Part shown: piece after piece, positions 7,205-29,881 of the stretch
How the letters are laid out: every line of letters starts with the position of its first letter
Position numbering within the stretch: the stretch's first letter is position 1
Source of the DNA: Dehalococcoidia bacterium
GTDB taxonomy: Bacteria; Chloroflexota; Dehalococcoidia; Bin125
Direction: 5' to 3'
Length of the DNA: 64,000 nt
Assembly: GCA_965262235.1 (NCBI GenBank)
Contig: OZ253504.1
Span: 2,582,354-2,646,353, forward strand
The notes under the pieces: generated by a model
Databases searched by the model: none
Seen by the model: the letters and a program-made list of their open reading frames with translations, nothing else
What the model was told of the DNA's origin: nothing
Position numbers and translations under genes: made by a program

Positions 7205-9457
7205 TTAGTGGGCGATCACGATCACGCCGCTTCGTTCTAGGGTGGCGAGTTCGTCGGCTCTTGAGATTCCGCTGAGGATTTCGTCGGCGTTGGAGCCGAG
7301 GATGGGGGCGGGCTGGCCGGGGACTACGGGGGTGCGGCTGAGGATCGCGGCGGGGCCGTTGGTGCGGATCTTGCCGCGGCCTTCGTGGTCTCTGGTGATC
7401 GAGAGGCCGCGGGACTGCGCCCAATCGCTCTCCATCGCCTCATCGACGGTGATCACTTCGGCGACGCCGATTCCCGCGCCGCGGAAGTGTTCGAGCCAGT
7501 GACTGACGGGATGGGCGCGAATGCGCCACTCGAGCTCCGCCTGCAGGCGATCACCTGCAGAGGCGACACCGCTGAGGCCGGGAACGCCCTCCAGCGCGGG
7601 GATGTCTCGCTCGCTCGCGCCGAGGAAGATCCAGCCGTCGGCGGCTTCGTAGAGGCGCTGCAGCGGGCCTTCGCCGAGCGCGCTCTGTCCGCGCGGCTCG
7701 GTCCAGGTCTTGCCCTCGTAGCCCTGCAGGAGCGACGACTGGAGGGTGCCCGCGGTGCGCGCCAGCGCGGTGTAGATCTCCTGCCCCTGACCGGTCCGCT
7801 CGCGGTGATAGAGCGCCATGCCCACGCCGAACGCGCCCATGATGCCGGTGCCGTAGTCGTTGATCGGGAACGGCTGGAGGGTCGGCGGATCGTCGCCGCC
7901 GTAGCGCGTCTGCATGCCCGTGGCGGCCTGCGCGAGCTGCTCCCAGCCGGCGCGCTCGGCCCACGGGCCGATCTCGCCGAAGGCGTTCAACGACGCGTAG
8001 ACGATGCCAGGGTGGCGCGCCGCGACATCTGCGTAGCCGATACCGAGTCGCTCGACGGCGCCCTTGCGGTAGTTCTGGACGACCACATCGGCGCCGGCGA
8101 CGAGGTTGTTGAAGATGTCGATTCCCGCCGTGGACTTGAGATCGAGCATGATGCTGCGCTTACCGCGGTTGACATCTTCGTGGAATCCGCCGCCCTCGCG
8201 TTTGGGGTCGTCGATCTTGATCACGTCAGCGCCGAACTCGGCCAGGGTTCGTCCGCAGGTCGGGCCGGCGAGGATGATGCAAAGGTCGATCGCGCGCATG
8301 CCCTCGAGCGCCTTCGAGAGTCGCGGTACGCCCTGGTAGGGCGCCGGCGGCTGCGCGGCAGCGACGCTCTCGAGGATCGCTTCGCGGTCGGCGTCGGGAG
8401 CGCGCTGTGCGTGGCCCGGCGCTCCGGGCGTGCGCGACATCCGCACCTGGATGCCCGGCTGCAGCATGGGGCCGAGGTCGGGGTCGTCGATCTCCACGAC
8501 CGCCTCCGACTGACGTGCATGTTCCTCGTGCAGCCACTCGGCGCTGTCGAGGCAGCGAACCGTCGGCGGGCCGGCCGCGTTGATCAGTTCTTCCCACTCC
8601 ATCGCAGGGCGCGTCTTGAAGATCTCGCTGAGGCGGCGGCGCGCCTCCGCCGCGAGTTCCGGTGAGCCGGCGAGCTGTGCCGATTGCGACCAGGGCTCGT
8701 CGAGCCACTCGGGGACGCCGGCGGCCTCACAGAACTGGCGCACGAAGTATGAGAACGCCGCATGGAAGAAGACCCAGCGCCCATCGGCGCACTCGTAGGC
8801 CGCGACCCACGGCATCTGTCGGCGCGTCGTGTCCTGTCCGATCACGCGCAGACCGGAGACGCCGACCGCCTGATAGATCGCGTCGTGCAGCGGCGACTCG
8901 ATGCGCTGGCCGAGCCCATCGCGCTCGCGTGCGACGAGCGCCATCGCGGTCGCCGTCACGCCGACGAACGCGCCGTAGACGGAGGCGATCGGGATCGCGG
9001 TGTAGATCGGCCGTGTCGAGGGCGTCCCGCCGAGCCGGGCGAAATATGTGCCCACGCCAGCGGAAACGACGCCCTCCCAAGCGGCGATGTCGCGCCGCTC
9101 GTCGCGCGCGCTGAAGCCGGGCATCGAGAGATAGATCAACCGGTCGTCGCGCGTGGTCATCTGCTCCGCGCCGAGGCCCAGGCGGTCCATCACGCCGGGG
9201 CGGAAGTTCTCGATCACGACATCGGCCGAGGCGATCAACTGCTCGGCGGTGCGCCGGTCGGCGCCCTGCTTGAGATCGAGGGCGATGCGCGACTTGCCGC
9301 GGTTCCAGATGGCGTTGGCGGGCGTGTCCCACGCGGGACCGCCGCGCGGGTCGACGCGAATCACCTCGGCGCCCTGGTCGGCGAGCAGCATGCCGGCGAG
9401 CGGCCCGGGGACCCACTGCCCAAAGTCGATTACGCGGAGTCCATCGAGCGCGCCCAT
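7205..9457 (-). CDS. tandem two-domain family III CoA-transferase (CaiB/BaiF x2 fusion)
   Basis: Two CaiB-type N-terminal signatures: LRVIDFGQWVPGPLAGMLLADQGAEVIRVDP and MRAIDLCIILAGPTCGRTLAEFGADVIKIDDP; 750 aa. Confidence 0.8.
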   Translation of the reverse strand: MGALDGLRVIDFGQWVPGPLAGMLLADQGAEVIRVDPRGGPAWDTPANAIWNRGKSRIALDLKQGADRRTAEQLIASADVVIENFRPGVMDRLGLGAEQMTTRDDRLIYLSMPGFSARDERRDIAAWEGVVSAGVGTYFARLGGTPSTRPIYTAIPIASVYGAFVGVTATAMALVARERDGLGQRIESPLHDAIYQAVGVSGLRVIGQDTTRRQMPWVAAYECADGRWVFFHAAFSYFVRQFCEAAGVPEWLDEPWSQSAQLAGSPELAAEARRRLSEIFKTRPAMEWEELINAAGPPTVRCLDSAEWLHEEHARQSEAVVEIDDPDLGPMLQPGIQVRMSRTPGAPGHAQRAPDADREAILESVAAAQPPAPYQGVPRLSKALEGMRAIDLCIILAGPTCGRTLAEFGADVIKIDDPKREGGGFHEDVNRGKRSIMLDLKSTAGIDIFNNLVAGADVVVQNYRKGAVERLGIGYADVAARHPGIVYASLNAFGEIGPWAERAGWEQLAQAATGMQTRYGGDDPPTLQPFPINDYGTGIMGAFGVGMALYHRERTGQGQEIYTALARTAGTLQSSLLQGYEGKTWTEPRGQSALGEGPLQRLYEAADGWIFLGASERDIPALEGVPGLSGVASAGDRLQAELEWRIRAHPVSHWLEHFRGAGIGVAEVITVDEAMESDWAQSRGLSITRDHEGRGKIRTNGPAAILSRTPVVPGQPAPILGSNADEILSGISRADELATLERSGVIVIAH

Positions 9458-9520
9458 CGGTGCCTCCTCTGCTGCGTGTGTGGGCGCAGGGTAGCTAGGC
9501 GCCGCGGGCGAGTTGCCTCG

Positions 9521-10120
9521 CTACCCGCTCAGCAACGCATCGGCCGCTTCGTCTATCACGGCGATGAATTCGGCTGGCGAGCGATCGTTGTGCAGGACCA
9601 GATTCGCTTTGGGCGCGCGTTCCTGCCAGGGCGTGGCCGACGCCCAGCGTTGCTCGGCCTCGGGGCGGGTGAGATCGTTGCGCGCCATCAGGCGCTGCAG
9701 CGCGGTCTCGGCGTCGCACGCGACGAGCCAGCCGGCGTCGCAGATCTGCATGTAGGGGCCCTCAAAGAGCCGCACGGCTTCGAAGACCGCGAGCGGCTGC
9801 GTGGCGTCGCGCAGCTCCGCGAGCAGGCGCATGAACTCGCCCTCGATGTCGCCGATCGCGGTGCGCAGTGCGGCGAGTCGCTCGGCGTTGCCGAAGACCA
9901 GCGCGCCGAGTGCCTTGCGGTCGATCGCGCCGCTCGCGGCGGTGACCTGCTCGCCGAACTCGGCGACGATCCGGCCGTGCGCGTCGGTACCGGGCTCATA
10001 CATCGCGTGGACGTAGCGGTCGGCGTCGAGGTGCGATGCGCCCCAGCGGTCAACCAGGCGTTGGCAGAGCAACGATTTCCCGGCAGCGATGGCGCCGGTG
10101 ACCCCGAGGACGATGGCCAT
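9521..10120 (-). CDS. coaE: dephospho-CoA kinase
   Basis: MAIVLGVTGAIAAGKS P-loop start and CoaE-like length. Start trimmed to the internal Met (track ORF extends to 10156). Confidence 0.8.
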   Translation of the reverse strand: MAIVLGVTGAIAAGKSLLCQRLVDRWGASHLDADRYVHAMYEPGTDAHGRIVAEFGEQVTAASGAIDRKALGALVFGNAERLAALRTAIGDIEGEFMRLLAELRDATQPLAVFEAVRLFEGPYMQICDAGWLVACDAETALQRLMARNDLTRPEAEQRWASATPWQERAPKANLVLHNDRSPAEFIAVIDEAADALLSG

Positions 10121-10188
10121 GATGATGCCCCTCGTGGCGGGAATAGTAGGGTACAAGAAATACGCGTTGTGATCGGCAATCCGGCTGC

Positions 10189-10686
10189 GTGGAGTGCGGG
10201 ATGAGTGAGTTCGAGCCGTCAGACGACGTGCCGTCGGGCACGCATGTGGCGCTGCCGATCGCCGAAGCTCACGTGAATGCCAATCTCGACTCGATCGATG
10301 CGATCGATTCGAAGGCGATGTTTCTCATCGGTCTGAATGTGGCGGGCGTCGGGATCTACGTCAGCGCTGTGGTAGCGCTCGGCTGGGGACTGGAGTGCAC
10401 GATCGCGCCCATCGCGTTCTTCCTCATCGCGACAGGCATCGGAATGTGGAGCGTGTGGCGCCTGAAGATTGCGCAGTTCCCATCGCCCGCTTCGATCATC
10501 GCGCTGCTGGGGGAGCACCTGAGCGACGAGCAGGTGGCGTGGGTCTTGCTCCATGGCATCGCCGAGGCGTCTCGCATGATCGAGCCGGTGCTCGAGCGCA
10601 AAGCGAGGCTCACGTTGGTCCTGCTGGTGCTTACCGTGAGCCACTCGGTAGCGATCGCGGGTAGCGCCGCTATCTGCGCCGGTTAG
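10189..10686 (+). CDS. hypothetical membrane protein
   Basis: 165-aa ORF with 3-4 hydrophobic helices (IGLNVAGVGIYVSAVVALGW..., IAFFLIATGIGMWSV..., LTLVLLVLTVSHSVAIAG). Confidence 0.4.
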   Translation: MECGMSEFEPSDDVPSGTHVALPIAEAHVNANLDSIDAIDSKAMFLIGLNVAGVGIYVSAVVALGWGLECTIAPIAFFLIATGIGMWSVWRLKIAQFPSPASIIALLGEHLSDEQVAWVLLHGIAEASRMIEPVLERKARLTLVLLVLTVSHSVAIAGSAAICAG

Positions 10687-11068
10687 ACGCCCTTGATGGT
10701 CCAGCCCGGCTTGATGCGCGGCAGCGGTCGCCGCTGGCCGGATCGGTCAGGCGTTGCGCGCTCGACGTCGGCTTCGTCGCCATTCGCGGGTACGTCCCGG
10801 TCGGAAGCTGCTGCGGCCATCTTTGACCCCCTTGTGCGTGTGTCGAGGGTATCAGCCGCATTGCGATGCGGTGCGCTCTTCCAGGGATTGCGCGCCGCTT
10901 CGCCGTGCCGCCGCCACCACTCGGCGATCCGTGCGTGGGCGGCCCCGTTCGCTTCCTGAGGCGAAGTCTTCGGTTCGCTGCCCACCGCCTCAGTCCGTCT
11001 GTTACAGAGTGCGGGCCCGATCAGGCTCGTCCCGGCGACTGGTGGCCGGGGCCAGGGCCGTAGGTCGC

Positions 11069-11686
11069 GTGTATTCTCGGCGAACGGTGTCTAACGACTT
11101 TTACCGATGCTCGTGGGCCGGCGAGAACAATGCGGAGGTCGCGTACCACGACGAGGAGTGGGGCGTGCCGCTGACCGATGACGTGGCGCTGTTTGAGTGC
11201 CTGACGCTTGAGGGGGCGCAGGCAGGGCTCTCGTGGAGCACGATTCTGGCGCGTCGCGAGGGCTATCGGTCGGCCTTCTGGGGCTGGGACCTGGAGCGGA
11301 TCGCGGGGGCGTCGGACGATGATCGGGAGACGCTGCGGGGCGATGTGAGGATCATCCGCAATCGGTTGAAGATCGCGGCGACCGTCGACAACGCCATCGC
11401 GACGCTGGCGCTGCGCGCCGGGGGACGCTCGCTGACGGAACTCGTCTGGGCCTACGCTGAACCCAGCGCAGGCCTCGGCGAGCTGGGCGACGTGCAGGCC
11501 CAGACCGTCGGCTCGCGGGCGCTGAGCCGCGAACTCAAGAGTCTTGGCTTTCGCTTCGTTGGACCCACCATCTGTTACGCCTTCATGCAGGCGAGTGGAA
11601 TCGTCAACGATCATCTGGCGCGGTGCTTCCGCCATGATCCGGTCGAAGCGTTGCGCCGGCCGTTGCTCGATCGCGCGATACCCTGA
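11069..11686 (+). CDS. tag: DNA-3-methyladenine glycosylase I
   Basis: YRCSWAGENNAEVAYHDEEWGVP...GLSWSTILARRE...FVGPTICYAFMQASGIVNDH collinear with Tag. Start uncertain (GTG at about 11069 or 11087); the Arg-rich N-terminal extension of the track ORF looks spurious. Confidence 0.8.
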   Translation: MYSRRTVSNDFYRCSWAGENNAEVAYHDEEWGVPLTDDVALFECLTLEGAQAGLSWSTILARREGYRSAFWGWDLERIAGASDDDRETLRGDVRIIRNRLKIAATVDNAIATLALRAGGRSLTELVWAYAEPSAGLGELGDVQAQTVGSRALSRELKSLGFRFVGPTICYAFMQASGIVNDHLARCFRHDPVEALRRPLLDRAIP

Positions 11687-11704
11687 GCGGACAAACGACG
11701 GGAA

Positions 11705-12508
11705 GTGGACATGACCTACGAACACCTCCGGGTTGAGATCGACGACCAGATCGCGACGATCACGCTGGACCGTCCGGAGAAGCTGAACGCGCTCTCGCGC
11801 GACCTGCACAACGAGATGGTCGCCGCGGCCAATGCCCTGCAGGCCGACGACGACGTGCGTGTGCTGATCGTCACGGGCGCCGGCCGGGGCTTCTGCTCGG
11901 GCGCGGACCTGACCGCGCGCCCATCGGCAAACGGCGTCTCCGAATCGCAGAATGCGCGGCTCGACGAGTTCGGCTGGGTCGGGGCGCAGGCGCTCGCCTT
12001 CGGCCAGATCGACAAGCCGACGATCGCGGCGGTGAACGGGGTCGCGGCGGGCGCGGGGATGAGCCTCGCGTTGGCCTGCGACATCCGCGTGGGCTCGGAG
12101 AAGGCGCGCTTCAAGACCGTGTTCCTCGAGCGCTCGCTCTCGCCCGACGCGGGCATGACGTGGTTCCTGCCGCGGATCGTGGGCTACGCCAAGGCGGCCG
12201 AGCTGGTGCTGACCAGCCGCTTCGTCGAGTCCGACGAGGCGCTGGAGATGGGTCTGCTCAACACCCGCGTGGCTCACGACGAGCTGATCTCGGCGGCGCG
12301 CGCGACTGCCGCGCAGATCGCATTCTGGCCGCCGCTCGCCGCCCGGTCGGCGAAGCGCGTCATGCAGCGCAACCTCAACGCCACGCTCGAAGAGGGCCTG
12401 CGAAACGAGATCACCGCGATCTCTCACGCCACCCGATCGGCGCACGATGTCGCCGAGGCGCAGGCCTCGTTCGTTGAGCGTCGTCAGCCGAACTTCACCG
12501 GCCAGTGA
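11705..12508 (+). CDS. enoyl-CoA hydratase/isomerase (crotonase family)
   Basis: ITLDRPEKLNALS...VLIVTGAGRGFCSGADL crotonase signature; 267 aa. Confidence 0.85.
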   Translation: MDMTYEHLRVEIDDQIATITLDRPEKLNALSRDLHNEMVAAANALQADDDVRVLIVTGAGRGFCSGADLTARPSANGVSESQNARLDEFGWVGAQALAFGQIDKPTIAAVNGVAAGAGMSLALACDIRVGSEKARFKTVFLERSLSPDAGMTWFLPRIVGYAKAAELVLTSRFVESDEALEMGLLNTRVAHDELISAARATAAQIAFWPPLAARSAKRVMQRNLNATLEEGLRNEITAISHATRSAHDVAEAQASFVERRQPNFTGQ

Positions 12509-13005: not shown

Positions 13006-13021
13006 GTCAGGAGGGTTGAGC

Positions 13022-14236: not shown

Positions 14237-14240
14237 GTCG

Positions 14241-16808
14241 TCAGGTCCGGCCGTCGCTGAGCGGCGGCGCGGTGACGATCGCCCGGTCCGACTCGAACTG
14301 CGCAACCTCCGCCGTGCTGAAGCCAAGCTCGCTGAGGATCACGCGATTGTGCTCGCCGAGCGCAGGACTGGGCCGCATCGCCAGCTCCGGCGCCTCGCTG
14401 AAGTGGAGCGGCGAACCGGCGTATTCGAACGTCCCGACACCGGGCTGATCCCAGTCGACAACGAAGCCGCGTTCGCGCAGCTGCCTGTTGTTGAATAGGT
14501 CGCGATTGGTCAGCACCGGCATCGCTGGGACCCCCGAAGCCTGAAGGCGCTCGGCCAGCGCGAAGCGCTCCAGCCTGGTGGTGTGGGACGAGATCAGCGC
14601 ATCGATCTGGTCGTGATGGGCCCGGCGACCGGCAGCGTTGAGCCACTCGGGGTTGCGCAGTGCCTGGTCGTCAATGACCTCGCAGAACTGGAGCCAGGCT
14701 TCGTCGCTGTCGATGGTGATCGCGATCCAGACATCAAGGCCGTCGGCAGCGTCCTCGCCCGCGGGCAGGCACGGGTAGACGCCCTGGGGCGCCGCCGACC
14801 AGTCGCGGTTGGCGCGCTGCTGGGGCGGGCCGCCGATTGAGGTCAACAGCGCGAGCTCGCCGCTGATGCCGACGTACGTCTCAAGCTGCGAGATGTCGAC
14901 GAACATCCCCTCGCCGGTCCGTTCGCGCTCCGCGAGCGCGGCGATCAGGGCAAACGCGGTGTGTATGCCGCCGACCGGATCGGGGAATGCGTGGCCGAGT
15001 TTGAGCGGTCCGGCCCCGGGGTATCCGGTCACGGTGGTGGCCCCGGAGTGGGCTTCGAGGATGGGACCGTACGAGACTCGCTGCTGCAAGGGCCCGGTGT
15101 GGCCGTAGCCCGTCGCGGAGATCGAGATGATCCGCGGATTCCACTCGCGGATCGTCGCGTGATCGATCCCCAGGCTGCGCGAGCCGCGCGGGCTGAAGTT
15201 GTCGAGCACCACGTCGGCCGACTCCACCAGCCGGCGCCAGATCCGCTTGCCCTCGGCGGTCTTCAGGTCAGCGCAGAGACTGCGCTTGTTGCGGTTCATC
15301 TTGGTGAACGATCCACCGCGGTTCCAGACTGCGGGGATCGGCTCCGCGTGGGGCTGCGAGCCCGAGCGTTGCTTGCGTCCGGGTGCATTGGGCCGCGGGA
15401 GGATTCCGGCCGCCCCCCGGGTGTGCTGCTCGACCTTGATCACATCTGCGCCGAGATCGCCGAGCGTGCGCGCGGCCAACGGGCCAGCCCAGGCGTAGCC
15501 GAATTCAACCACACGGATCCCCTCGAGCAGCCGCGTCGCGCCGGCTTCAGTGCGGGTTGGTCGCGTCGCGCGCAGGATCGGCGTCGGACGCCGCTCGCCG
15601 ACGAGCGGACGCGTGCCGCTGTCGAGGAGCACGCCGTCGCCGACGAGCTGTCGCAGCTCGTTGGGCGCGCAGCCTGCCTCGGCGAGCACTTGCGCGGTGT
15701 GCTGGCCGAGCCTGGGGGCGGCTCGAAACTCGGAAGGGCTGGACGGCAGCCGGAACGGGAGCCCGGGCATCCGCGCGCCGGCGCCGAGCTCCTCGGGCGA
15801 CACCCAGAAGTCGCGCTCCCGCAGCTGCTCGTCGTCCAGCGTTTCGTCGAGCGACAGCACGGCACTGGCGGGCACGTGGTGGCCCTGAAGCGCGTCGACC
15901 ACTTCGCTGCGGCTGCGGGACATCAGCCATGGCGCCAGGCGCTGATCGATCTCGTCGGCGTGGTCGGCGCGGCCGGAGCGGGGCGCGTTCGCGCCGTAAC
16001 GCGGATCATCGGCCATCTCCGGCATCCCAATCGCGGCGCAGAGGTTACGCCACTGCGCCGGGCTCGGCGCCGCGATGCAGACCCAGCCGTCGCGGCAGGG
16101 GAAGAGCGCGACCGGGTGCGGCGTATCGACGTGCCGATTGTTGGTGCGCCGTTTGACGACCCGCTGCCAGGAGTACTGCACGAAGCTCCACTGGTGCGAG
16201 GCGGCCATCGCTTCCATCGTGCCGACATCAACCAGCTGGCCGCGACCGCTCTTGCGCCGCTCATGCAGCGCGGCCAGCGCGCCGACGGCCGCGGTGACAC
16301 CGGCGACGTAGGCCGACCAGGGGCCCGCGCCCTGCACGGGGGCGCGCGCGGGATCGCCGCTGATGTAGAGGTAGCCGCTCGCGGCCCAATCGCAGAGGTC
16401 GCTGCCGCTCCAGCCGGACCACGGGCCGCTCGCTCCATAGCGCGATACCGACACGTGGACGAGCTCGGGATTGCGCGCGCGAATCCTGGCATCGAACTCA
16501 TGCGCCGTCTCGGGATTCTCGTCCGCTGAGCTAATCACCACATCGGCGTGGTCGATCAGTTCGTCGAGCCAGCGCTGGCCGGCGGGATGATCAGCGTCGA
16601 GCGCGACGCTCTGCTTCCACGCCGCGAGGTATTCAAACAGGGCGCTGCGACCCGTCGCTTGCGTGCGCAACAGCGGTGGCATGCGCCGCAACGCAGATCC
16701 TTCGAGCGGCTCAACCAGCGTGACATCGGCGCCGGCGGTGGCGAGCAGCCGCCCGGTGTACGCCCCGGCCACACTCTGGCTCAGCTCGAGCACGCGCAGG
16801 TCGATCAT
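14241..16808 (-). CDS. tandem two-domain family III CoA-transferase (CaiB/BaiF x2 fusion)
   Basis: MIDLRVLELSQSVAGAYTGRLLATAGADVTLVEP and IRVVEFGYAWAGPLAARTLGDLGADVIKVEQ signatures; 855 aa. Confidence 0.8.
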   Translation of the reverse strand: MIDLRVLELSQSVAGAYTGRLLATAGADVTLVEPLEGSALRRMPPLLRTQATGRSALFEYLAAWKQSVALDADHPAGQRWLDELIDHADVVISSADENPETAHEFDARIRARNPELVHVSVSRYGASGPWSGWSGSDLCDWAASGYLYISGDPARAPVQGAGPWSAYVAGVTAAVGALAALHERRKSGRGQLVDVGTMEAMAASHQWSFVQYSWQRVVKRRTNNRHVDTPHPVALFPCRDGWVCIAAPSPAQWRNLCAAIGMPEMADDPRYGANAPRSGRADHADEIDQRLAPWLMSRSRSEVVDALQGHHVPASAVLSLDETLDDEQLRERDFWVSPEELGAGARMPGLPFRLPSSPSEFRAAPRLGQHTAQVLAEAGCAPNELRQLVGDGVLLDSGTRPLVGERRPTPILRATRPTRTEAGATRLLEGIRVVEFGYAWAGPLAARTLGDLGADVIKVEQHTRGAAGILPRPNAPGRKQRSGSQPHAEPIPAVWNRGGSFTKMNRNKRSLCADLKTAEGKRIWRRLVESADVVLDNFSPRGSRSLGIDHATIREWNPRIISISATGYGHTGPLQQRVSYGPILEAHSGATTVTGYPGAGPLKLGHAFPDPVGGIHTAFALIAALAERERTGEGMFVDISQLETYVGISGELALLTSIGGPPQQRANRDWSAAPQGVYPCLPAGEDAADGLDVWIAITIDSDEAWLQFCEVIDDQALRNPEWLNAAGRRAHHDQIDALISSHTTRLERFALAERLQASGVPAMPVLTNRDLFNNRQLRERGFVVDWDQPGVGTFEYAGSPLHFSEAPELAMRPSPALGEHNRVILSELGFSTAEVAQFESDRAIVTAPPLSDGRT

Positions 16809-17662
16809 GCGTACCGGAGGGGCACGGCGCCCTGATAGATGCCCGGTATCCAGCTGCCGTCGACGCGCCGCGCCGCGTCGATCAACGCGGGGGCCATGCC
16901 TTCGGCGGCGTGGTACAGCTCCTCCACGTCCTCAAACGAGCCGGCGCTGTCGGCGCGCAGGCCGGGACGCCAGACGACCGTCGGCACCCCGGCCGAGAGG
17001 TGGTCCAGCTCGTTACGGGTGCGCTGCTCGACGGCGACCTCCATCGAGCGAGCCAACACATCGATGATGCCGCGCGGTCGCCGCGGCGAGGGCGGTGAGC
17101 CGAGGTCGACGGCGATGATCTCCGTCGCCCCCTGCGCCACGGCGGTCTCGAGGTCGAGCCCGGTGACCACTCCGGCGTCGACGTACCACTCGCCGCGGAT
17201 GCGGACCGGGGGGAACACCCCGGGGATCGCGCAGGAGGCGAGCACGGCATCGATCACCGAGCCGTTGGAGAAGACCTGCTTGACACCGCGGTCGAGGCTG
17301 GTGGCGGTGATGTACAGCGGAATCTCGGCGGCCGCGAGTTCGTCGACCGTGACGTAGGGCTCGATCAGCTGGCGGAGAAACTCGTTGGAGTAGAGGCTCA
17401 TCCGCCCGAGCAGCAGATTACGGCCGATCCGCAGGAGGTTGCGGTCCCACATGCGCTGGTCGCGCAGCGCACGCCAGACGTCGGCCAGGCCGTCGATGTT
17501 GTGCGGATGAAACGCGAGAAAGGCGCCGTTGAGCGCGCCGACGCTGGTGCCCACGATCATGTCGGGGTTAATGTCGAGGTCCATCAAGCGCTGCAGAAAC
17601 GGCACCTGGCAGATGCCGAGGTTGCCGCCGCCGCTCAGGACGAGAGCCAGGCGTTGCGCCAA
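16805..17662 (-). CDS. patatin-like phospholipase
   Basis: LVLSGGGNLG oxyanion motif, GTSVGA serine motif and a downstream DAG-type motif. 4-bp overlap with the downstream CoA-transferase gene. Confidence 0.8.
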   Translation of the reverse strand: MAQRLALVLSGGGNLGICQVPFLQRLMDLDINPDMIVGTSVGALNGAFLAFHPHNIDGLADVWRALRDQRMWDRNLLRIGRNLLLGRMSLYSNEFLRQLIEPYVTVDELAAAEIPLYITATSLDRGVKQVFSNGSVIDAVLASCAIPGVFPPVRIRGEWYVDAGVVTGLDLETAVAQGATEIIAVDLGSPPSPRRPRGIIDVLARSMEVAVEQRTRNELDHLSAGVPTVVWRPGLRADSAGSFEDVEELYHAAEGMAPALIDAARRVDGSWIPGIYQGAVPLRYA

Positions 17663-17681
17663 TCCTCCGCCCCCTCGTTGA

Positions 17682-18116
17682 TTAGCGATTCGGTCGGCGG
17701 TCGGGAACGATCTCGGTCAGAATCCCGTTGGCCGACTTGGGGTGGAAGAAGGATGCGGTGATGTCCTCGATCGGGCCGCCGAAGTCGATGTAACGCAGCC
17801 CGTTCTCGATGAACTGCTTGGTATCTGCGACGACGTTGTCGCTGGCGTAGCCGAGATGGTGCAGACCGGGGCCGTTGCGCTCGAGGAACTTGCCGATCCC
17901 GCTCACGTTGTCGTCGGGCAGCAGGATCTCGATTCGGGTCTCGCCGAGGTTGACCTTGACGAAGAAGATCCTGGTCCGCTCGGGGGCGAAGTAGCCGCCC
18001 TTGGGCATCGGGGTGCGCTCGGGGTCCCAATCGAGCCCCAGCCGGTCGACGAGCACATCGCCAGCCTGTTCCAGGCTGTTCGACACGATCCCGATGTGGT
18101 CCAGGTGGGTGATCAT
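17682..18116 (-). CDS. VOC-family protein resembling methylmalonyl-CoA epimerase
   Basis: HIGIVSNSLEQA...GLHHLGYASDNV...FFHPKSANGILTEIV pattern typical of MCE/glyoxalase-fold enzymes; 144 aa. Confidence 0.65.
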   Translation of the reverse strand: MITHLDHIGIVSNSLEQAGDVLVDRLGLDWDPERTPMPKGGYFAPERTRIFFVKVNLGETRIEILLPDDNVSGIGKFLERNGPGLHHLGYASDNVVADTKQFIENGLRYIDFGGPIEDITASFFHPKSANGILTEIVPDRRPNR

Positions 18117-18167
18117 CTCGTCCTCTTCCGCGCTGCTGCTCGTTGGGGCGTTTGCAAAGACTACTGA

Positions 18168-19502: not shown

Positions 19503-19603
19503 TGCCCAACGTTAGAGGTGGCCGCCGCTAAATGCGGTCTGGTGCAGGTTGCCGCGGGTTGGGGCGGTGGAACATGCCAGCAGGGTTCGATGCGTTGGGG
19601 CAG

Positions 19604-20296
19604 CTAATCCCACAGCCGCGCGAAGTCGAGCGTGAAATCGGGCAGGACCTCTTCGCCCGAGATGGTCTCGGGGCGCTCCAGCCGTTCGGGCTCGGAGCCG
19701 TCGGCTCGGTAAATCCAGACCAGTTCGCGCAGCGGGTCGATCAGCCAGCCGAGCTGCGCGCCGAAGCGCATCCACTCATCCATGCGCCGCCGCTGCGAGG
19801 CGACTGTCTCGCTTGGTGAGATGATCTCGACGACCAGTGCGGGGCAGAGGCTAGGCAGGCCGTGTTTGCGCTCGTAGGTGCTCAGCGAATCGAACTGTTC
19901 CTGGGTCATCCAGGAGACATCGGGAATCCGCACCGCGCCGACGGCGCGCTCGGGATCAACGGGTCCATCAGGGTCTTCGAGCCGGAATCCGCCGCTTGCG
20001 TCACGGACATCCCCGCCCGCCCCGGCCCAGGTCCAGATCATGATCTGAGTCACGATCCGCGCGCCGAACGAGGGACTCTCGCCATTCGGTGAGGGAGAGA
20101 TGATCAGGTCTCCTTCCGAGGTGCGCTCGAACGGCCCGAGTTCGTTGAGAGCCGCTAGCTCTGAGAGGGTCCAGTCGGTCAGCCGCCACTCGGAAGGGAG
20201 GCGGAGCACGATCGGGTCGCGAGCGGTCGCGAACTCCTCGATCGCCGGGGCGACGGTCGGCTTGGCGGGAGTGGAGACCATGAACTCCTCCGTCAC
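19604..20296 (-). CDS. Uma2-family (DUF820) putative restriction-endonuclease-like protein
   Basis: PALVVEIISPSE...RRRMDEWMRFGAQLGWLIDP matches the Uma2 PD-(D/E)xK-like core. Paralog of the gene at 36653-37342. Confidence 0.7.
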   Translation of the reverse strand: MTEEFMVSTPAKPTVAPAIEEFATARDPIVLRLPSEWRLTDWTLSELAALNELGPFERTSEGDLIISPSPNGESPSFGARIVTQIMIWTWAGAGGDVRDASGGFRLEDPDGPVDPERAVGAVRIPDVSWMTQEQFDSLSTYERKHGLPSLCPALVVEIISPSETVASQRRRMDEWMRFGAQLGWLIDPLRELVWIYRADGSEPERLERPETISGEEVLPDFTLDFARLWD

Positions 20297-20350
20297 TCGT
20301 TGTCTTCACCCATGATACGGATGCTGCGGGCGCAGTGTCGGGCCGCGCAG

Positions 20351-21127: not shown

Positions 21128-21137
21128 TTTCGTCCGT

Positions 21138-24709: not shown

Positions 24710-24730
24710 GGACTCAAGTGTACCGACGGT

Positions 24731-26695
24731 TCAGGTCTCGACGGCGACCACCTCAACGAGCAGCTGCCCCTCTTCGACCGTCGCCCCGGCTTCGCAGCGG
24801 ACCGAGGCGACGCGCCCACCGGCGAGCGCCGGCAGCAGGTGCTCCATCTTCATCGCCTCGAGCACGACCAGCGTCTGACCGGCCTCGACGAGATCGCCCT
24901 CGGCGACGAGCACCGCCGCGATCGTGCCCGGCATCGGCGCGTGGACCGCGTTGGAGCCGCCCGCGCGTCGCCGCGTCCCGGCGGAGCGGTCGCGTTCGGC
25001 GGTCGTGAAGGCCCATGAGCGCTCGCCGTGGCCGACGATCACACCCCATCGGGAGCGTTGTGTCGACCACGATTGGCGACTCCGGGCGATGCTGAGTTCG
25101 AGCCCATCCGCCGTGCGGTGAGCGTTGACGGTGGTGTTTGCGCCGCCGTCGACGCTCGCCTCCCACGTGGCGTTCGCACCCACGACGCGTTGCAGGGTGA
25201 CGGTGTGCTCGCTGCCATGCAGCGCCAGCCGCGCGGTGGTGTCGCCGGACGAGCGCCAGCCGCCGGTCGCGCCCTCGATGCGCGGCAGCGCGGCATCGAG
25301 CGCCGCCGCGATGAGCGCTGCGTTCGGCGTGTCGCGCGGCCCGAGCTCGGTGCGCTCCAGCCAGCCGACATCAACGCCGCCGGAGCGAAAATCGTCGGAG
25401 CTGAGGATGCCGACAAGCTGGTTGACGTTGGTGCGCAGGCCGGCGATCGCCGTGCCTTCGAGCGCCGCGACCGAGCGCGTCAGCGCTTCCTCGCGATCGG
25501 CGCCGTGCGCGATCACCTTGCCGAGCAGCGGGTCGTAGTGCGGCGTGACTGCGGAGCCCGCTGCGACGCCGAGATCGTTGCGCACGCCGGCCGCGCTTGA
25601 GGGCGCGAACCAGGTCAGCCGACCGATCGAGGGGAGGTAGTCGCGGGTTGGGTCCTCGGCGTAGACGCGCGACTCGATGGCGTGGCCCTGCCAGTGAATC
25701 TCGGTCTGCGAGATCGGCAGTTCCTCGCCCATCGCGATGCGTAGCTGCAGCTCGACCAGGTCGAGGCCCGTGACGGCCTCGGTGACAGGATGCTCGACCT
25801 GCAGGCGGGTGTTGACCTCGAGGAAGACGAACTCGTTGTCGGGCAGCAGCAGGAACTCAACCGTGCCCGCATTCTGGTAACCCGCCGCGCCGATGATCGC
25901 GAGGGCGGCCTCGCCGAGGCGGTGGCGCAGGTCGTCGTCGACGCCCGGCGCCGGCGCCTCTTCGATGACCTTCTGGCGGCGGCGCTGCACGGAGCAGTCG
26001 CGCTCGCCGAGATGGACGGCGTTGCCGAATCGGTCGGCGAGGACCTGCACCTCGACGTGGCGGCCGTCAACGATCGCCCGTTCGACGAGCAGGCGGCCGT
26101 CTCCGAAGGCCGACTCGGCTTCGCGGCGCGCGGATGCGATGGTCTCCACCAGGTCGTCGGGCGCTTCGGTCAGCAGCCGCATGCCGCGCCCGCCGCCGCC
26201 GGCGGCTGCCTTGAGCATCACGGGGTAGCCGAGCTGCCCGATCGCCGCGGCCAACGCTTCGTCGCCCTCGTCCTGCTCGATCCCGTCTGCAACGGGGACG
26301 CCCGCTGCGACCGCGAGCTGCCGGGCCTGCGCCTTGTCGCCGAGCTGCGACATCACGTCGGCCGGGGGGCCGATCCAGACCAGGCCGGCGTTGGCGCAGG
26401 CGCGCGCGAACTCGGCGTTCTCCGAGAGAAAGCCGTAGCCGGGGTGCACCGCATCGGCGCCCGAGCGCGCCGCGGCGTCGAGCAGCGCGGGGATGTTGAG
26501 ATAACTCTGAGCAGCGGGCGCCGCGCCGATCGGGATCGCGGCGTCTGCTGCGCGCACGTGCAGGGCCCCGCGGTCGGCGTCGGAGTAGACCGCGATCGAG
26601 TGCACGCCGAGTTCGCGGCAGGTGCGCGCGATCCGGACGGCGATCTCGCCGCGGTTGGCGATCAGCACGGCGCGGGGCAGCAGCGTGTTGGGCAT
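24731..26695 (-). CDS. acyl-CoA carboxylase alpha subunit (biotin carboxylase + biotin carboxyl carrier domains)
   Basis: N-terminal AVLIANRGEIAVRIARTCRELG biotin carboxylase signature; C-terminal VLEAMKMEH biotinylation motif; 654 aa. Confidence 0.85.
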   Translation of the reverse strand: MPNTLLPRAVLIANRGEIAVRIARTCRELGVHSIAVYSDADRGALHVRAADAAIPIGAAPAAQSYLNIPALLDAAARSGADAVHPGYGFLSENAEFARACANAGLVWIGPPADVMSQLGDKAQARQLAVAAGVPVADGIEQDEGDEALAAAIGQLGYPVMLKAAAGGGGRGMRLLTEAPDDLVETIASARREAESAFGDGRLLVERAIVDGRHVEVQVLADRFGNAVHLGERDCSVQRRRQKVIEEAPAPGVDDDLRHRLGEAALAIIGAAGYQNAGTVEFLLLPDNEFVFLEVNTRLQVEHPVTEAVTGLDLVELQLRIAMGEELPISQTEIHWQGHAIESRVYAEDPTRDYLPSIGRLTWFAPSSAAGVRNDLGVAAGSAVTPHYDPLLGKVIAHGADREEALTRSVAALEGTAIAGLRTNVNQLVGILSSDDFRSGGVDVGWLERTELGPRDTPNAALIAAALDAALPRIEGATGGWRSSGDTTARLALHGSEHTVTLQRVVGANATWEASVDGGANTTVNAHRTADGLELSIARSRQSWSTQRSRWGVIVGHGERSWAFTTAERDRSAGTRRRAGGSNAVHAPMPGTIAAVLVAEGDLVEAGQTLVVLEAMKMEHLLPALAGGRVASVRCEAGATVEEGQLLVEVVAVET

Positions 26696-26723
26696 GGCGC
26701 GAGTCTAGACTCGCGCCATGCCC
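26690..26723. promoter_or_regulatory. 34-bp perfect palindrome spanning both divergent start codons (candidate shared operator)
   Basis: gggcatggcgcgagtctagactcgcgccatgccc equals its own reverse complement. It contains the CAT (minus-strand ATG) of the carboxylase gene and the ATG of the PurO-like gene. Confidence 0.5.
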
Positions 26724-27464
26724 GATCGTCTTCTCGACCTCGCGCAGCGGAACTTCCGGCAACACCTCGCCGAGAATTCGTACCCGGGGCGGGGGATAGT
26801 GATCGGTCGGCTGGAGAGCGGCGACTGGATTCAGCTGTACTGGATCATGGGCCGCAGCGCGAACAGCAGGAACCGCAAGCTGGTGTCGAGCGAGGGCGAG
26901 CTTCGTACCGAGCCGCTCGACGCGGCGCTCGCGGAAGATCCGACCAACATCATCTACGAGGCGATGCTCGAGGCGCCGGACGTGTTCGTGGTCTCGAACG
27001 GTGACCAGACGCGCACGATCCTCAATGCGCTGGCGCACGGTGATCGGTTCGAGGACGCGCTGGCGACGCGCGAGCGCGAGGACGACGCGCCCAACTACAC
27101 ACCGCGCATCGCCGGGCTGATCGACCTACGCGGCCGGACGCACCAGCTGCCCGCACAGCTCAGCCTCGCGATCCTGCGCGCGAGCGACGCGGACGCCGGC
27201 GAGACCGACCGGACGATCTATCGGCCGGCATTGCCGCCGCCGGGGCTTGGCCAGGGGCTCACGACGTACGCCGGAGATGGCAGCCCCCTGCCGCCATTCC
27301 GCGGCGACCCGCTGTGGTTACCAATGGTCGGGAATGTTCAGGCGATCCTTGACACGTATTGGCAGGCGCTCGACGCGAACAATCGAATCGCGCTGGCGGC
27401 GAAGCAGATACCGACCGACGGGGGCGAGACCCAAATTCACCTCCGCGGCTCTGGAGCGGAGTAG
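26718..27464 (+). CDS. PurO-like (archaeal-type) IMP cyclohydrolase homolog
   Basis: YPGRGIVIGRLESGDWIQLYWIMGRSANSRNR and VFVVSNGDQTRTI...NYTPRIAG align by memory with the PurO pattern Y.GR...GR..G....RSFPNR / VVSNG..T.TI...NTPRIA. Confidence 0.5.
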   Translation: MPDRLLDLAQRNFRQHLAENSYPGRGIVIGRLESGDWIQLYWIMGRSANSRNRKLVSSEGELRTEPLDAALAEDPTNIIYEAMLEAPDVFVVSNGDQTRTILNALAHGDRFEDALATREREDDAPNYTPRIAGLIDLRGRTHQLPAQLSLAILRASDADAGETDRTIYRPALPPPGLGQGLTTYAGDGSPLPPFRGDPLWLPMVGNVQAILDTYWQALDANNRIALAAKQIPTDGGETQIHLRGSGAE

Positions 27465-27469
27465 GCGGC

Positions 27470-29881
27470 ATGGCCGAGCATGAGGGCGCGCTGTCGGGGC
27501 TGACGGTGGTGCAGATCGGCTCAGGGCTCGACTCGGCCTACGCCGCGAAACTGCTCTCGGACCTGGGCGCGCGGCTGATCGTCGTCGAGCCACCCGATGG
27601 CGCGCCGCTGCGGACGCGTCCGCCGGTCGCCGACGGGGCGGGGCACGGGGCGATCTGGGCGCACCTCGCCTCGGGTGCGGAGTCGGTGGTTCCGGCCGAT
27701 CGCCAGGATGCCCGGCGAATTCTGCGCTCGTTGCTCGCTCATGCCGATGTGCTGCTGACGGATGGGACATCGCAGTCGCAGCAGGACCTGCCGACCGCGC
27801 CGCACGCGCGGCTGATCACTGCCGACCTATCGGCCTGGGGACGGTCGGGGCCGTACGCGGAGTGGCGTGAGAGCGACATCGCGACCTGGGCGATGGGCGG
27901 CTACATGTATTTCACGGGTGAGCCCGACCGCGAGCCGCTGATCATCCCGGGCAGCCAGAGCGCGATCCACGCGGGCGTGCATTGCGCGCTCGCTGTGCTT
28001 GCGGCGGTGCGCGAGCGTCGCCGCTCGGGGCACGGCCAGCAGATCGAGCTGTCGCAGCTCGAGGCGAATCTGTCAGCGCATGCGTGGCTGGTCTCGTCGT
28101 GGACCGCCAGCGGGCAGGCGCTGCTGCGCACGGGGCATGACTTCACCAGGACGCGCGACGGCTGGGCGCATTTCATGCAGATGGTGCCCAACCCGAACGT
28201 CTTCCTGCTGATCGACCAGCCGGAGCGGATGGACGAGGTGATCGCCAACGACATCGACACGTGGCGGCGGGCAGTGGCGGGCGTGTACCGCGAGGTGGAG
28301 GCCTGGGCGCAGGACGTTGATTCAGAGGAGGTGGCGACCCGCGCGCAGGAGCTGCGAGTGGCCTGCACGCCGATGCTCGATGCGGCCGGGCTGGATCGAA
28401 ATCCTCAGCTCGCGGCGCGGGGCTGGTGGGAGACGGATTTGGACGCCGAGCTCGGGGAGCTGCGGTTCCCGGGCCCGGCGTACCAGCTCTCGCGAACGCC
28501 CGCGCATCGAGGCGGCCCCGCGCCGCAGCTCGGCGAGCACAGCGCGGCGATTCGGGAGGAGTTCGTGGGGCGAGCCGCGCCGCCTGCGCCGAGCGCGATG
28601 CCGACCGATGCCGGGCCGCTGGAGGGGCTGACTGTCGTTGAGCTGACCTCGAACTGGGCCGGGCCGATCGCCGGACGCCACCTGGGCGACCTCGGCGCGA
28701 ATGTGATCAAGCTGGAGTGGGCGGCGCGTCCCGCGACGCGCGCGTTGTTCATGCCGGGGCCGACGCAGGACCCGCAGCGCTATCCCTATGACCGCGCGAT
28801 GTACTTCAATCTGCTCAATCGCAACAAGCGGGATGTGATCGTGGATCTGGCGACCGAGCAGGGGCGCGAGGTGTTCAGGGCGCTGATCGCGCGCGCCGAC
28901 GTGTTCATCGAGAACAACAGCGCGCGCGTGATGCCGAACCTTGGCCTGGGCTACGACGCGATGAGCGAGGTCAACCCGCGGCTGATTTACGTGTCGATGT
29001 CGGGCTTCGGCGCGACCGGCCCGTGGCGCGACTGGAGCGCGTACGGGTCGAACATCGAGGCGTCGTCGGGCCTGGCGTCGGTGACGGGCTACGACGAGTC
29101 GCAGGTCTATCGCACGCCGGTGTTCTACGCCGACCCGGTGGCGGGCAATCACGCGGCGGTGGCGATTCTGGCGGCGCTGGAGGAGCGTGAGCGCTCGGGG
29201 CTGGGGCAGTTCATCGATGTCGCGCTGAACGAAGCGGGCGCCTGCCACTTCCTCGAGATGCTGCTCGACTATCAGGCGACGGGCACGATCCGGCGGCCGA
29301 ACGGCAACCGCGACGAGCGATTCGCGCCGCAGGGCGCCTATCGCTGCGCGGGTGATGACTGCTGGATCGGCCTGGCGGTGCAGAGCGACGAGGAGTGGCC
29401 GCTGCTCGCGGAAGCGATCGGTCGCCAGGACCTGGCGGACGATCTGGAGCTGGCGACGCTCGCCGGTCGCCAGGGGCGACACGACGAGCTGGATGCGGCG
29501 ATCCACACCTGGACGCAGGGATACGAGCAATACGAGGCGGCGTGGATCCTGCAGCGGGCCGGCGTCTCGGCCGCGCCGGTGCTGGCCAACTGGCAGGTGC
29601 TGGCCGACCCGCATCTGTTTCATCGCGGGTTCTACGTGCCGATCGAGCATCCCGTGGTAGGGGTCTACCCGTTCCCCTCGTGGCCCTGGCGCTTTTCGCG
29701 GACGCCGGCGCGGGTGAGGCGCGCGGCGCCGCGGTTCGCCGAGCACAACCGGGAGGTTCTGTCGGAGATCGGCTTGTCGGAGCAGCAGATCCAGCAGCTC
29801 TACGACGAGGGGATCACATCCGATGCGCCCACGGCCCCGACGCTGGTCGTCCGTTCGGGCCTGTCGGCGCCCGACGACTAA
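27470..29881 (+). CDS. tandem two-domain family III CoA-transferase (CaiB/BaiF x2 fusion)
   Basis: LTVVQIGSGLDSAYAAKLLSDLGARLIVVEPP and LTVVELTSNWAGPIAGRHLGDLGANVIKLEW signatures. Start trimmed to MAEHEG (track ORF starts at 27359). Confidence 0.8.
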   Translation: MAEHEGALSGLTVVQIGSGLDSAYAAKLLSDLGARLIVVEPPDGAPLRTRPPVADGAGHGAIWAHLASGAESVVPADRQDARRILRSLLAHADVLLTDGTSQSQQDLPTAPHARLITADLSAWGRSGPYAEWRESDIATWAMGGYMYFTGEPDREPLIIPGSQSAIHAGVHCALAVLAAVRERRRSGHGQQIELSQLEANLSAHAWLVSSWTASGQALLRTGHDFTRTRDGWAHFMQMVPNPNVFLLIDQPERMDEVIANDIDTWRRAVAGVYREVEAWAQDVDSEEVATRAQELRVACTPMLDAAGLDRNPQLAARGWWETDLDAELGELRFPGPAYQLSRTPAHRGGPAPQLGEHSAAIREEFVGRAAPPAPSAMPTDAGPLEGLTVVELTSNWAGPIAGRHLGDLGANVIKLEWAARPATRALFMPGPTQDPQRYPYDRAMYFNLLNRNKRDVIVDLATEQGREVFRALIARADVFIENNSARVMPNLGLGYDAMSEVNPRLIYVSMSGFGATGPWRDWSAYGSNIEASSGLASVTGYDESQVYRTPVFYADPVAGNHAAVAILAALEERERSGLGQFIDVALNEAGACHFLEMLLDYQATGTIRRPNGNRDERFAPQGAYRCAGDDCWIGLAVQSDEEWPLLAEAIGRQDLADDLELATLAGRQGRHDELDAAIHTWTQGYEQYEAAWILQRAGVSAAPVLANWQVLADPHLFHRGFYVPIEHPVVGVYPFPSWPWRFSRTPARVRRAAPRFAEHNREVLSEIGLSEQQIQQLYDEGITSDAPTAPTLVVRSGLSAPDD

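Follow-up and report, generated by a model that had tools for sequence, protein, structure and literature searches.

Asymmetry of the catalytic aspartate in three two-domain family III CoA-transferases, probable single-chain heterodimers

The main new result, read from the sequences, is an asymmetry of the catalytic aspartate between the N- and C-terminal units of three fused family III (CaiB/BaiF) CoA-transferases, here P1, P2 and P3. The C-terminal units retain this residue, and the N-terminal units have serine or alanine in its place. The three genes come from one window, that is, the whole stretch of 64,000 nucleotides that was analysed. Taking the sequences together with the structure models, we consider it probable that P1, P2 and P3 are covalent heterodimer-type family III CoA-transferases with one working site each. 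P1 is the odd one of the three, its N-terminal half having both the CoA-binding motifs and an invariant serine.

Three fused genes

The open reading frames of 750, 855 and 803 aa listed in the preliminary description of the window are all present:

7205..9457, minus strand: P1, fused family III CoA-transferase of 750 aa (open reading frame and translation)
14241..16808, minus strand: P2, fused family III CoA-transferase of 855 aa (open reading frame and translation)
27470..29881, plus strand: P3, fused family III CoA-transferase of 803 aa, ATG start at 27470

The mechanically called frame of P3 opens at TTG 27359, and homologues of 799–805 aa favour the ATG at 27470. The Pfam profile search finds two full-length stretches of PF02515 (CoA_transf_3) in each protein, with whole-protein E-values of 5e-160 for P1, 3e-183 for P2 and 7e-160 for P3, and whole-protein scores of 533–609 bits at a cut-off of 23.3 bits. 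Hence each gene is indeed a head-to-tail fusion of two family III units, as had been proposed, and not one CoA_transf_3 domain with an unrelated extension. Two N-terminal signatures per frame had also been noted, and the pair given as the example, LRVIDFGQ...ADQGAEVIRVDP and MRAIDLCI...FGADVIKIDDP, is found entirely inside the 750-aa P1.

The reading frames of all three genes are uninterrupted, each gene being a single ORF, and their GC3 (0.86–0.87) is in line with that of the neighbouring genes. The halves of each fusion are joined by a linker of 20–45 aa, which in P2 is predicted to be disordered:

15540..15617, minus strand: P2 inter-unit linker, aa 398–423, pLDDT below 50 in the AlphaFold2 model

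The genes had been called tandem, which is not the case: P1 and P2, on the minus strand, are 4.8 kb apart with six unrelated genes between them, and P2 is separated by 10.5 kb and nine unrelated genes from P3, which is on the plus strand. The identity among the three proteins is only 25–37% per half. For P2 and P3 it is 37% in the C-terminal and 30% in the N-terminal halves; by sequence, P3 is a paralogue of P2.

Catalytic aspartate in the two halves

The nucleophilic aspartate of the family is Asp169 in Frc and CaiB. The units of the fusions, and the single-domain gene S1 used for comparison, are as follows:

8339..9457, minus strand: P1 N-terminal unit, aa 1–373; Ser159 (codon 8981–8983) in place of Asp; NRGK and ENFRPG kept
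7205..8338, minus strand: P1 C-terminal unit; Asp534 (codon 7856–7858)
15573..16808, minus strand: P2 N-terminal unit, aa 1–412; Ala166 (codon 16311–16313) in place of Asp; NRxKRS and ENFRPG degenerate
14241..15572, minus strand: P2 C-terminal unit; Asp610 (codon 14979–14981)
27470..28600, plus strand: P3 N-terminal unit; Ala165 (codon 27962–27964) in place of Asp; CoA motifs degenerate
28601..29881, plus strand: P3 C-terminal unit; Asp555 (codon 29132–29134)
1349..2548, minus strand: S1, single-domain family III CoA-transferase; keeps Asp

In the catalytic column of the alignment (column 200), the N-terminal halves of P1, P2 and P3 have S, A and A, respectively, and all C-terminal halves as well as S1 have D. 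The HMMER alignments set Ala166 of P2 against the aspartate of 4ed9, 10uh and 9fn0_B, and Ser159 of P1 aligns with Asp156 of MCR.

The same asymmetry is seen in the fused homologues. The C-terminal aspartate is present in every aligned member of the P2 (121/121), P1 (136/136) and P3 (113/113) families, while the N-terminal position is occupied by aspartate in two of 121, none of 136 and none of 113 proteins, respectively, that is, in two out of 370. In the P1 family this position is serine in 136/136. In the P3 family (n = 113) it is variable, with Glu in 52, Gln in 41, Ala in 8, Ser in 6, Gly in 3, Pro in 2 and Cys in one protein, but never Asp. An N-terminal half lacking the nucleophilic aspartate leaves at most one canonical transferase site per chain, and the active-site pair suggested earlier does not agree with the loss of this residue from P1, P2, P3 and 368 of the 370 homologues.

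The halves differ in overall conservation as well. The number of columns conserved at 95% or above is 28 in the N-terminal versus 65 in the C-terminal half of the P2 family, and 71 versus 147 in the P3 family, the N-terminal half thus having about half of the C-terminal count. In the P1 family the numbers are nearly equal, 95 and 104, and the N-terminal CoA motifs NRGK and ENFRPG are invariant or nearly so.

Predicted structure and a proposed single site

Family III enzymes form an interlocked dimer, with the sites situated at the interface where the large domain of one protomer meets its partner's small domain. The AlphaFold2 models of the whole chains have pLDDT 90.5 and pTM 0.93 for P1, and pLDDT 88.8 and pTM 0.92 for P2, the latter despite the disordered linker. 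In these models, the pTM values imply confident packing of the halves into compact bodies. Of the fixed heterodimer-like active-site pair envisaged in the preliminary description, the heterodimer-like arrangement is supported for both proteins by these predictions, and the second site is not supported.

Each half superposes on monomers of homodimeric family III enzymes with TM about 0.8–0.9. The closest fold match of P2 is BbsEF (9fn0), with TM 0.92 to chain B/D and 0.86 to chain A. The closest PDB match of the P2 N-terminal half is the Asp-less BbsEF chain 9fn0_A (E 4e-40), and the C-terminal half matches chain B. The closest PDB sequence matches of the P1 N-terminal half are alpha-methylacyl-CoA racemases (E about 1e-24).

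BbsEF, the succinyl-CoA:(R)-benzylsuccinate CoA-transferase (9fn0/9fol/9fun), resembles the fusions in having one Asp-less and one Asp-bearing protomer: in the HMMER alignment, chain A has tyrosine at the aspartate position and chain B has aspartate, and a deposited entry bears the title 'D178-CoA adduct'. However, BbsEF consists of two polypeptides encoded by adjacent genes, whereas the fusions are one chain, and the identity is only about 28–30%. SmtAB and succinyl-CoA:o-phthalate CoA-transferase also belong to family III and have two subunits. The homodimeric Frc, YfdW, YfdE, CaiB and SUGCT share the domain, the aspartate and the CoA-binding motifs with the C-terminal halves of the fusions, but contain two identical sites per dimer, unlike the fusions with their one chain and one aspartate.

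We propose that each chain supplies both protomers of the usual interlocked dimer, one per half, and that these pack together. One competent site per chain would then be formed by the Rossmann domain of the C-terminal half and the small domain of the N-terminal half, and the symmetry-related second site would be dead. The C-terminal aspartate would be the sole nucleophile, yielding acyl-Asp anhydride and Asp-CoA thioester intermediates. The N-terminal halves of P2 and P3, which have lost the CoA-binding motifs too, would act as a structural or substrate-pocket partner, in the same role as the subunit without the aspartate in BbsEF and similar two-subunit enzymes. The presumed reaction converts an acyl-CoA (succinyl- or acetyl-CoA) and a carboxylic acid to a new acyl-CoA without ATP.

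Two observations go against this description. The glutamate found in 52/113 members of the P3 family could in principle serve as a nucleophile; this objection is tempered by P3 itself having alanine there, and many P3 orthologues glutamine. Further, since the P1 N-terminal half is as conserved as the C-terminal one and keeps the CoA motifs, the label of a dead partner may not do it justice.

Fused and split forms

The fusions had been regarded as unusual, but in each of the P1, P2 and P3 searches the matches listed include at least about 110–120 clusters, formed at 90% identity, of homologues that are fused over their full length. The two-domain fusion is a widespread and common architecture, with a precedent already in DddD. 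Fused forms of the same two partners are found in Acidimicrobiia, Chloroflexota, Entotheonella, Bradyrhizobium, Mycobacterium, Nakamurella and Gammaproteobacteria, and those found on plasmids by tblastn are labelled only 'CoA transferase'. At twelve loci (L008, L014, L015, L023, L031, L036, L042, L064, L080, L027, L063 and L070), an Asp-less and an Asp-bearing gene are adjacent. The occurrence of the same partners fused in some genomes and adjacent in others provides Rosetta-stone support for heterodimer-type pairing.

Beyond the fusions, the window contains three more family III domains, S1 and those of a split pair (43863–46393), the only pair in the window that matches the two-gene layout of BbsEF-type enzymes:

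45119..46393, minus strand: unfused partner A, family III, 424 aa; Asp D181 and the ENF motif kept
43863..45119, minus strand: unfused partner B, family III, 418 aa; Ala at the Asp position, ENF motif degenerate

In the sequence TAATG, the stop of partner A and the start of partner B overlap. A counterpart of S1 is situated directly downstream of the P1 orthologue in a relative whose P1 is 84% identical.

The P1 family comprises at least 120 clusters, and its named members among the matches listed all belong to Chloroflexota or Dehalococcoidia. In the tree, the two halves of P1 are sister domains, which indicates a separate, more recent duplication; P1 thus seems to have arisen by an independent duplication and fusion.

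Alternative explanations

Could both halves be active, with two different transferase sites per chain or a CoA hand-over between the halves? Both are complete domains, the P1 N-terminal half keeps all CoA-binding motifs and equals the C-terminal half in conservation, and many P3 orthologues have glutamate at the N-terminal position. Yet we find this quite improbable, given the loss of the nucleophilic aspartate from the N-terminal half in the window proteins and nearly all homologues and the loss of the CoA-binding motifs from the P2 and P3 N-terminal halves. Frc mutants D169A, D169S and D169E, which exist as PDB entries, are reportedly inactive. Nor does anything support the intramolecular CoA transfer raised earlier: the model of an intramolecular transferase, TIGR04253 (Mct, 2-methylfumaryl-CoA isomerase), scores the three fusions at 59, 126 and 99 bits, far under its cut-off of 725. 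A more restricted alternative, which we rate as rather unlikely, applies to the P1 family, where the N-terminal half might have acquired a new function with a bound acyl-CoA and without aspartate chemistry. This half might serve allosteric control, accommodate a second substrate, or house, at the invariant serine, an active site of the hydrolase, lyase or isomerase type. The conservation of Ser159 and of both CoA motifs, the separate, more recent duplication and the top PDB matches, which are non-transferase racemases of the family, agree with such a function. On the other hand, the interlocked fold could by itself impose this conservation for structural reasons, and we know of no family III enzyme with serine at the catalytic aspartate position. 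Moreover, in alpha-methylacyl-CoA racemase (MCR/AMACR), a non-transferase of the same fold, the catalytic pair is His126 and Asp156, which in the 1x74 alignment correspond to Ala/Trp and Ser in the P1 N-terminal half; the P1 halves were rejected as racemases because these catalytic residues are missing. It is unlikely that the P1 family is a new kind of two-function family III enzyme in which the C-terminal half is the Asp-dependent transferase and the N-terminal half, with its CoA-binding motifs and invariant serine, acts on the new acyl-CoA in a second step, either by allosteric control or as a lyase, hydrolase or isomerase. If it is, P1 would combine activation and transformation in the manner of DddD, on carboxylates derived from dissolved organic matter.

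A DddD-type bifunctional CoA-transferase/lyase, which makes the CoA ester of a substrate such as DMSP and then cleaves it, is another candidate for all three fusions, although a very improbable one. Alcolombri et al. are said to have identified in 2014 the catalytic residue of DddD as Asp602, which would fall in the C-terminal domain, as in the fusions. DddD (Marinomonas, Halomonas, Endozoicomonas) is the characterised enzyme of the same architecture, a single polypeptide of about 820–840 aa with two CaiB-type domains, residues 1–416 and 439–821 (PMC7174347). DddD is also the top Swiss-Prot match of SAR202 Chloroflexi CaiB/BaiF paralogues (Landry et al. 2017, PMC5395668). However, the hosts of DddD are Proteobacteria, whereas the nearest named homologues of the fusions belong to Chloroflexota, and no DddD name occurs among the about 360 homologues listed. 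The DddD operon contains a DMSP transporter, a regulator and genes of the 3-hydroxypropionate pathway (PMC7174347, PMC10664990), but the fusions lack a ddd operon context: the window genes scanned against Pfam include no ddd-type neighbours, that is, no BCCT transporter, LysR regulator or DddB/DddC-type dehydrogenases. The identity of only 25–37% per half argues against one substrate common to all three of these divergent paralogues. Finally, the probability that the fusions are artefacts, in which a frameshift from sequencing or assembly has merged two adjacent genes, is negligible. The two partners are indeed also known as split, adjacent genes, but the frames are unbroken, the GC3 is normal and the linkers are conserved. 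Hundreds of independent assemblies show the same fused lengths, some of them on contigs of at least 3 Mb, presumably complete genomes, and this recurrence effectively refutes the artefact.

Implications and gene neighbourhood

SAR202 and sponge-symbiont-type Chloroflexota have large expansions of CaiB/BaiF paralogues, thought to channel unusual carboxylates into CoA-dependent degradation with no ATP spent (PMC5395668, PMC6306507). If the fusions are single-chain heterodimers with one site, as we prefer, many of these paralogues may be obligate asymmetric pairs, fused or split, with a single active site, and such pairing would halve the apparent number of enzymes in these genomes. For annotation, the aspartate should be looked for in each domain, an Asp-less domain being a likely partner and not an enzyme; in practice, Asp-less and Asp-bearing partners should be expressed jointly. 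The asymmetry of the fusions does not reveal a new mechanism.

The neighbours of the fusion genes in the window encode a patatin, a glyoxalase-fold protein, an MFS transporter, peptidases, biotin carboxylase and others, and no bbs-type beta-oxidation operon was found among them. This gene content points to a putative aerobic lifestyle with degradation of dissolved organic matter. Two neighbours are close to the fusion genes:

16805..17662, minus strand: patatin-like hydrolase gene, stop overlapping the P2 start (ATGA)
26718..27464, plus strand: IMP-cyclohydrolase-like gene, ending 5 nt ahead of the P3 start

The ATGA overlap suggests possible translational coupling of the patatin-like gene and P2, and the arrangement recurs at another locus (L001). 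Coupling of fusion genes to esterase/lipase genes suggests carboxylates from ester hydrolysis; carboxylates freed by esterases are thus one possibility for the substrates, the neighbourhoods being weak and non-conserved. The link between the IMP-cyclohydrolase-like gene and P3 differs in orientation at one locus (L083), where P3 is inverted. Outside the lineage the P3 neighbourhood is not kept; Ilumatobacteraceae have an alpha/beta-hydrolase and a P450 as neighbours instead.

Fused two-domain CoA-transferases

Three long ORFs, P1, P2 and P3, were found as proposed in the preliminary description. Each encodes two complete family III (CaiB/BaiF) CoA-transferase units, as the Pfam search yields two full-length stretches of PF02515 (CoA_transf_3) in every protein (whole-protein E-values 5e-160, 3e-183 and 7e-160, respectively).

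P1: 7205–9457, minus strand, long ORF of 750 aa
P2: 14241–16808, minus strand, long ORF of 855 aa
P3: 27470–29881, plus strand, 803 aa, ORF counted from the ATG at 27470

The mechanical ORF call for P3 begins at the TTG at 27359, but since the homologues are of 799–805 aa, the start is assigned to the ATG at 27470. The G+C content of the window is high (61–71%), and GC3 of the three genes (0.86–0.87) is the same as in the adjoining genes. A profile scan in six frames features nine family III domains in 64 kb: six in P1–P3, one in the single-domain gene S1 (1349–2548, minus strand) and two in an adjacent pair of genes (45119–46393 and 43863–45119).

None of the NCBIfam equivalog models matches P1–P3 at or above its own cut-off. 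None of the chains among the PDB sequence matches exceeds 456 residues, hence no fused member has a solved structure. The fusion itself is common and has a precedent: the DMSP CoA-transferase/lyase DddD also carries two CaiB domains in one chain, residues 1–416 and 439–821 (PMC7174347). No ddd-type neighbours are seen among the scanned genes of the window, and no homologue of P1–P3 among the matches listed bears the name DddD.

Asymmetry of the halves

In the alignment of the six halves and S1, the column of the nucleophilic Asp contains Ser, Ala and Ala in the N-terminal units (N-halves) of P1, P2 and P3, respectively, and Asp in all three C-terminal units (C-halves) and S1; the codons were confirmed in the DNA. 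Independent HMMER alignments with solved proteins pair Ala166 of P2 with the Asp in 4ed9, 10uh and 9fn0_B, and Ser159 of P1 is aligned by HMMER with Asp156 of the M. tuberculosis racemase. In DddD, the catalytic residue is reportedly Asp602 (Alcolombri and co-authors, 2014), which would fall in the C-terminal domain.

Residues at the nucleophilic-Asp column in full-length aligned family members
P1 family, n = 136: C-half Asp 136/136; N-half Ser 136/136
P2 family, n = 121 (the set includes the three window proteins, so the counts are not purely of P2 homologues): C-half Asp 121/121; N-half A 59, S 29, G 11, E 7, Q 7, T 3, D 2, others 3
P3 family, n = 113: C-half Asp 113/113; N-half E 52, Q 41, A 8, S 6, G 3, P 2, C 1

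Judging by these alignments, the asymmetry is a family property and not a local mutation. The N-halves of P2 and P3 have lost the NRxKRS and ENFRPG CoA-binding motifs, and the number of their strongly conserved columns is about half that of the C-halves (P2 family, 28 vs 65; P3 family, 71 vs 147). In P1, the CoA-binding motifs of the N-half are nearly invariant and the halves are equally conserved (95 vs 104 columns). Of all this, only the P1 family, in which the Ser is invariant and the N-half keeps its CoA-binding motifs, could conceal something new.

Predicted structure and mechanism

AlphaFold2 models built on family alignments have pLDDT 90.5 and pTM 0.93 for P1, and pLDDT 88.8 and pTM 0.92 for P2, where confidence is low over a long stretch only in the linker (398–423) and in a loop (465–477). 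Since pTM exceeds 0.9 over 750–855 residues with two units on a flexible linker, the mutual arrangement of the units in both chains is predicted confidently, and the halves may interlock as in the usual family III dimer. In the fold comparison, every half can be superposed on a monomer of family III, and chains B/D of the benzylsuccinate CoA-transferase BbsEF (PDB 9fn0) match P2 with TM 0.92.

In published family III structures, the substrate pocket lies where the Rossmann domain of a protomer meets the small domain of its partner, and the conserved Asp forms covalent intermediates (PMC9196870). By analogy, each chain would have one competent site, formed by the C-half Rossmann domain and the N-half small domain. 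There, CoA would pass from a donor thioester to a carboxylic acid independently of ATP. The symmetry-related site would lack the nucleophile; in P2 and P3 its CoA-binding residues would also be gone and it is presumably vestigial, and that of P1 may have kept the ability to bind CoA esters. The suggested heterodimer-like nature of each fusion agrees with Asp-less and Asp-bearing halves in one chain. The proposed active-site pair does not, as the N-halves have no nucleophilic Asp, and there is no sign of the intramolecular CoA transfer offered as an alternative.

Fused and split pairs

BbsEF, already known, consists of two subunits, whereas P1–P3 are single chains. Among PDB sequences, the P2 N-half matches chain A of BbsEF best (9fn0_A, E 4e-40), in which Tyr occupies the Asp position; chain B, among the best PDB matches of the P2 C-half, keeps the Asp. 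A deposited BbsEF entry bears the title "D178-CoA adduct". Further two-subunit heteromeric family III enzymes are SmtAB and phthalate CoA-transferase. Given the DddD fusion and these heteromeric enzymes, P1–P3 belong to known kinds of enzyme, of which they are uncharacterised representatives.

Scanning a single genome for each species shows that, among the matches listed, both fused and split forms of the same pairing occur. Again among the matches listed, single fused ORFs are seen in Ca. Poriferisodalis, Tepidiformaceae, Ca. Entotheonella, Bradyrhizobium, Mycobacterium/Mycolicibacterium, Nakamurella, Gammaproteobacteria and Anaerolineaceae; adjacent genes have the Asp-less one first in nine loci (L008, L014, L015, L023, L031, L036, L042, L064, L080) and the Asp-bearing one first in three (L027, L063, L070); three Dehalococcoidia proteins (L032, L039, L040) are fusions in the reverse order. 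The window has a split counterpart of the P1–P3 fusions:

45119–46393, minus strand, upstream gene, Asp and ENF motif kept
43863–45119, minus strand, downstream gene, Ala at the Asp position, degenerate CoA motifs

The start of the downstream gene overlaps the upstream stop by one base (TAATG). In a rough neighbour-joining tree (about 130 domains, no bootstrap), this pair groups with the three reverse-order fusions. The Asp-less and Asp-bearing partners form two mirrored groups in that tree with fused and split members interleaved inside, which suggests an old heterodimer fused several times; P2 and P3 belong to this system as paralogues. The P1 halves are mutual closest relatives, an indication that they were duplicated and fused separately. 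As a possibly useful generalisation from sequence, the fusions and many adjacent pairs may each be an asymmetric pair of obligate partners that share a single active site.

Hints to the substrate

The gene context gives weak hints to the acid substrate of P1–P3. The P2 start and the stop codon of a patatin-like hydrolase gene overlap (ATGA), also in the relative whose P1 is 84% identical. In one member of the Ilumatobacteraceae, a P3 homologue is situated 3' of an overlapping alpha/beta-hydrolase gene and 5' of a P450 gene. Esterases, luciferase-type monooxygenases and short-chain dehydrogenases abound in the window, which also contains an enoyl-CoA hydratase and an acyl-CoA synthetase. This content agrees with the model put forward for SAR202 and sponge Chloroflexota, where an enlarged set of CaiB/BaiF paralogues attaches oxidation products to CoA (PMC5395668, PMC6306507). 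The nearest named homologues of P1–P3, among the matches listed, come from Chloroflexota/Dehalococcoidia and Acidimicrobiia metagenome-assembled genomes.

Paralogues in the window include three Abhydrolase_3 esterases (53310–54239, 56681–57625, 57696–58622), two luciferase-like monooxygenases (39844–41091, 59035–60087) and two Uma2-family proteins (19604–20296, 36653–37342). Such clusters are typical of Chloroflexota degrading dissolved organic matter. A 691-aa ORF without a Pfam match (37469–39544, plus strand) has coding-like GC3 of 0.79. Upstream of the patatin–P2 pair, a gene at 17682–18116 (minus strand) encodes a 144-aa Glyoxalase_4 protein. Methylmalonyl-CoA epimerases are among the members of this Pfam family, so the protein could be an epimerase of CoA esters with a link to P2.

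Gene neighbourhood

The fusions had been described as tandem, but six genes separate P1 from P2 and nine separate P2 from P3, the latter being on the opposite strand.

Between P1 and P2: dephospho-CoA kinase; ORF without a Pfam match; methyladenine glycosylase; enoyl-CoA hydratase; GNAT acetyltransferase; glutaredoxin/thioredoxin-reductase-like
Between P2 and P3: patatin-like hydrolase; glyoxalase-fold protein; MFS transporter; Uma2 protein; DnaJ-flavin reductase; DPP-IV-type peptidase; M24 peptidase; biotin carboxylase/BCCP; IMP-cyclohydrolase-like protein

The arrangement believed to be present here, a true tandem, is observed in Dehalococcoidia UBA6926 (locus L069), where two fused two-domain family III genes (6717–9158 and 9219–11627) lie side by side; the N-half of each has Tyr and the C-half Asp.

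The region between S1 and P1 (2588–7113), with lower G+C (0.61–0.65), contains a DUF2283 gene, a 975-aa Eco57I-like methylase/restriction gene and a 304-aa ORF without a Pfam match. The P1 and S1 orthologues adjoin directly in locus L001 (P1 84% identical). This region looks like an inserted restriction-modification island.

In locus L083, from a relative with 67% identity, the P3 orthologue (8001–10400) alone is inverted, the neighbours being otherwise syntenic with the window: M1 peptidase, MOSC protein, 251-aa gene, P3, IMP-cyclohydrolase-like, biotin carboxylase, M24 peptidase, DPP-IV. No long inverted repeats flanking P3 were found in the window. A perfect 34-nt palindrome at 26690–26723 (GGGCATGGCGCGAGTCT/AGACTCGCGCCATGCCC) covers both start codons of the divergent biotin carboxylase and IMP-cyclohydrolase-like genes and is a candidate operator site. 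Just 3' of P3, there is a 28-nt inverted repeat (29916–29943 and 30033–30060) whose arms are 86% complementary, each being itself a C6/G6 hairpin (CTCTCCCCCC...GGGGGGAG), possibly a REP-like element or else a terminator.
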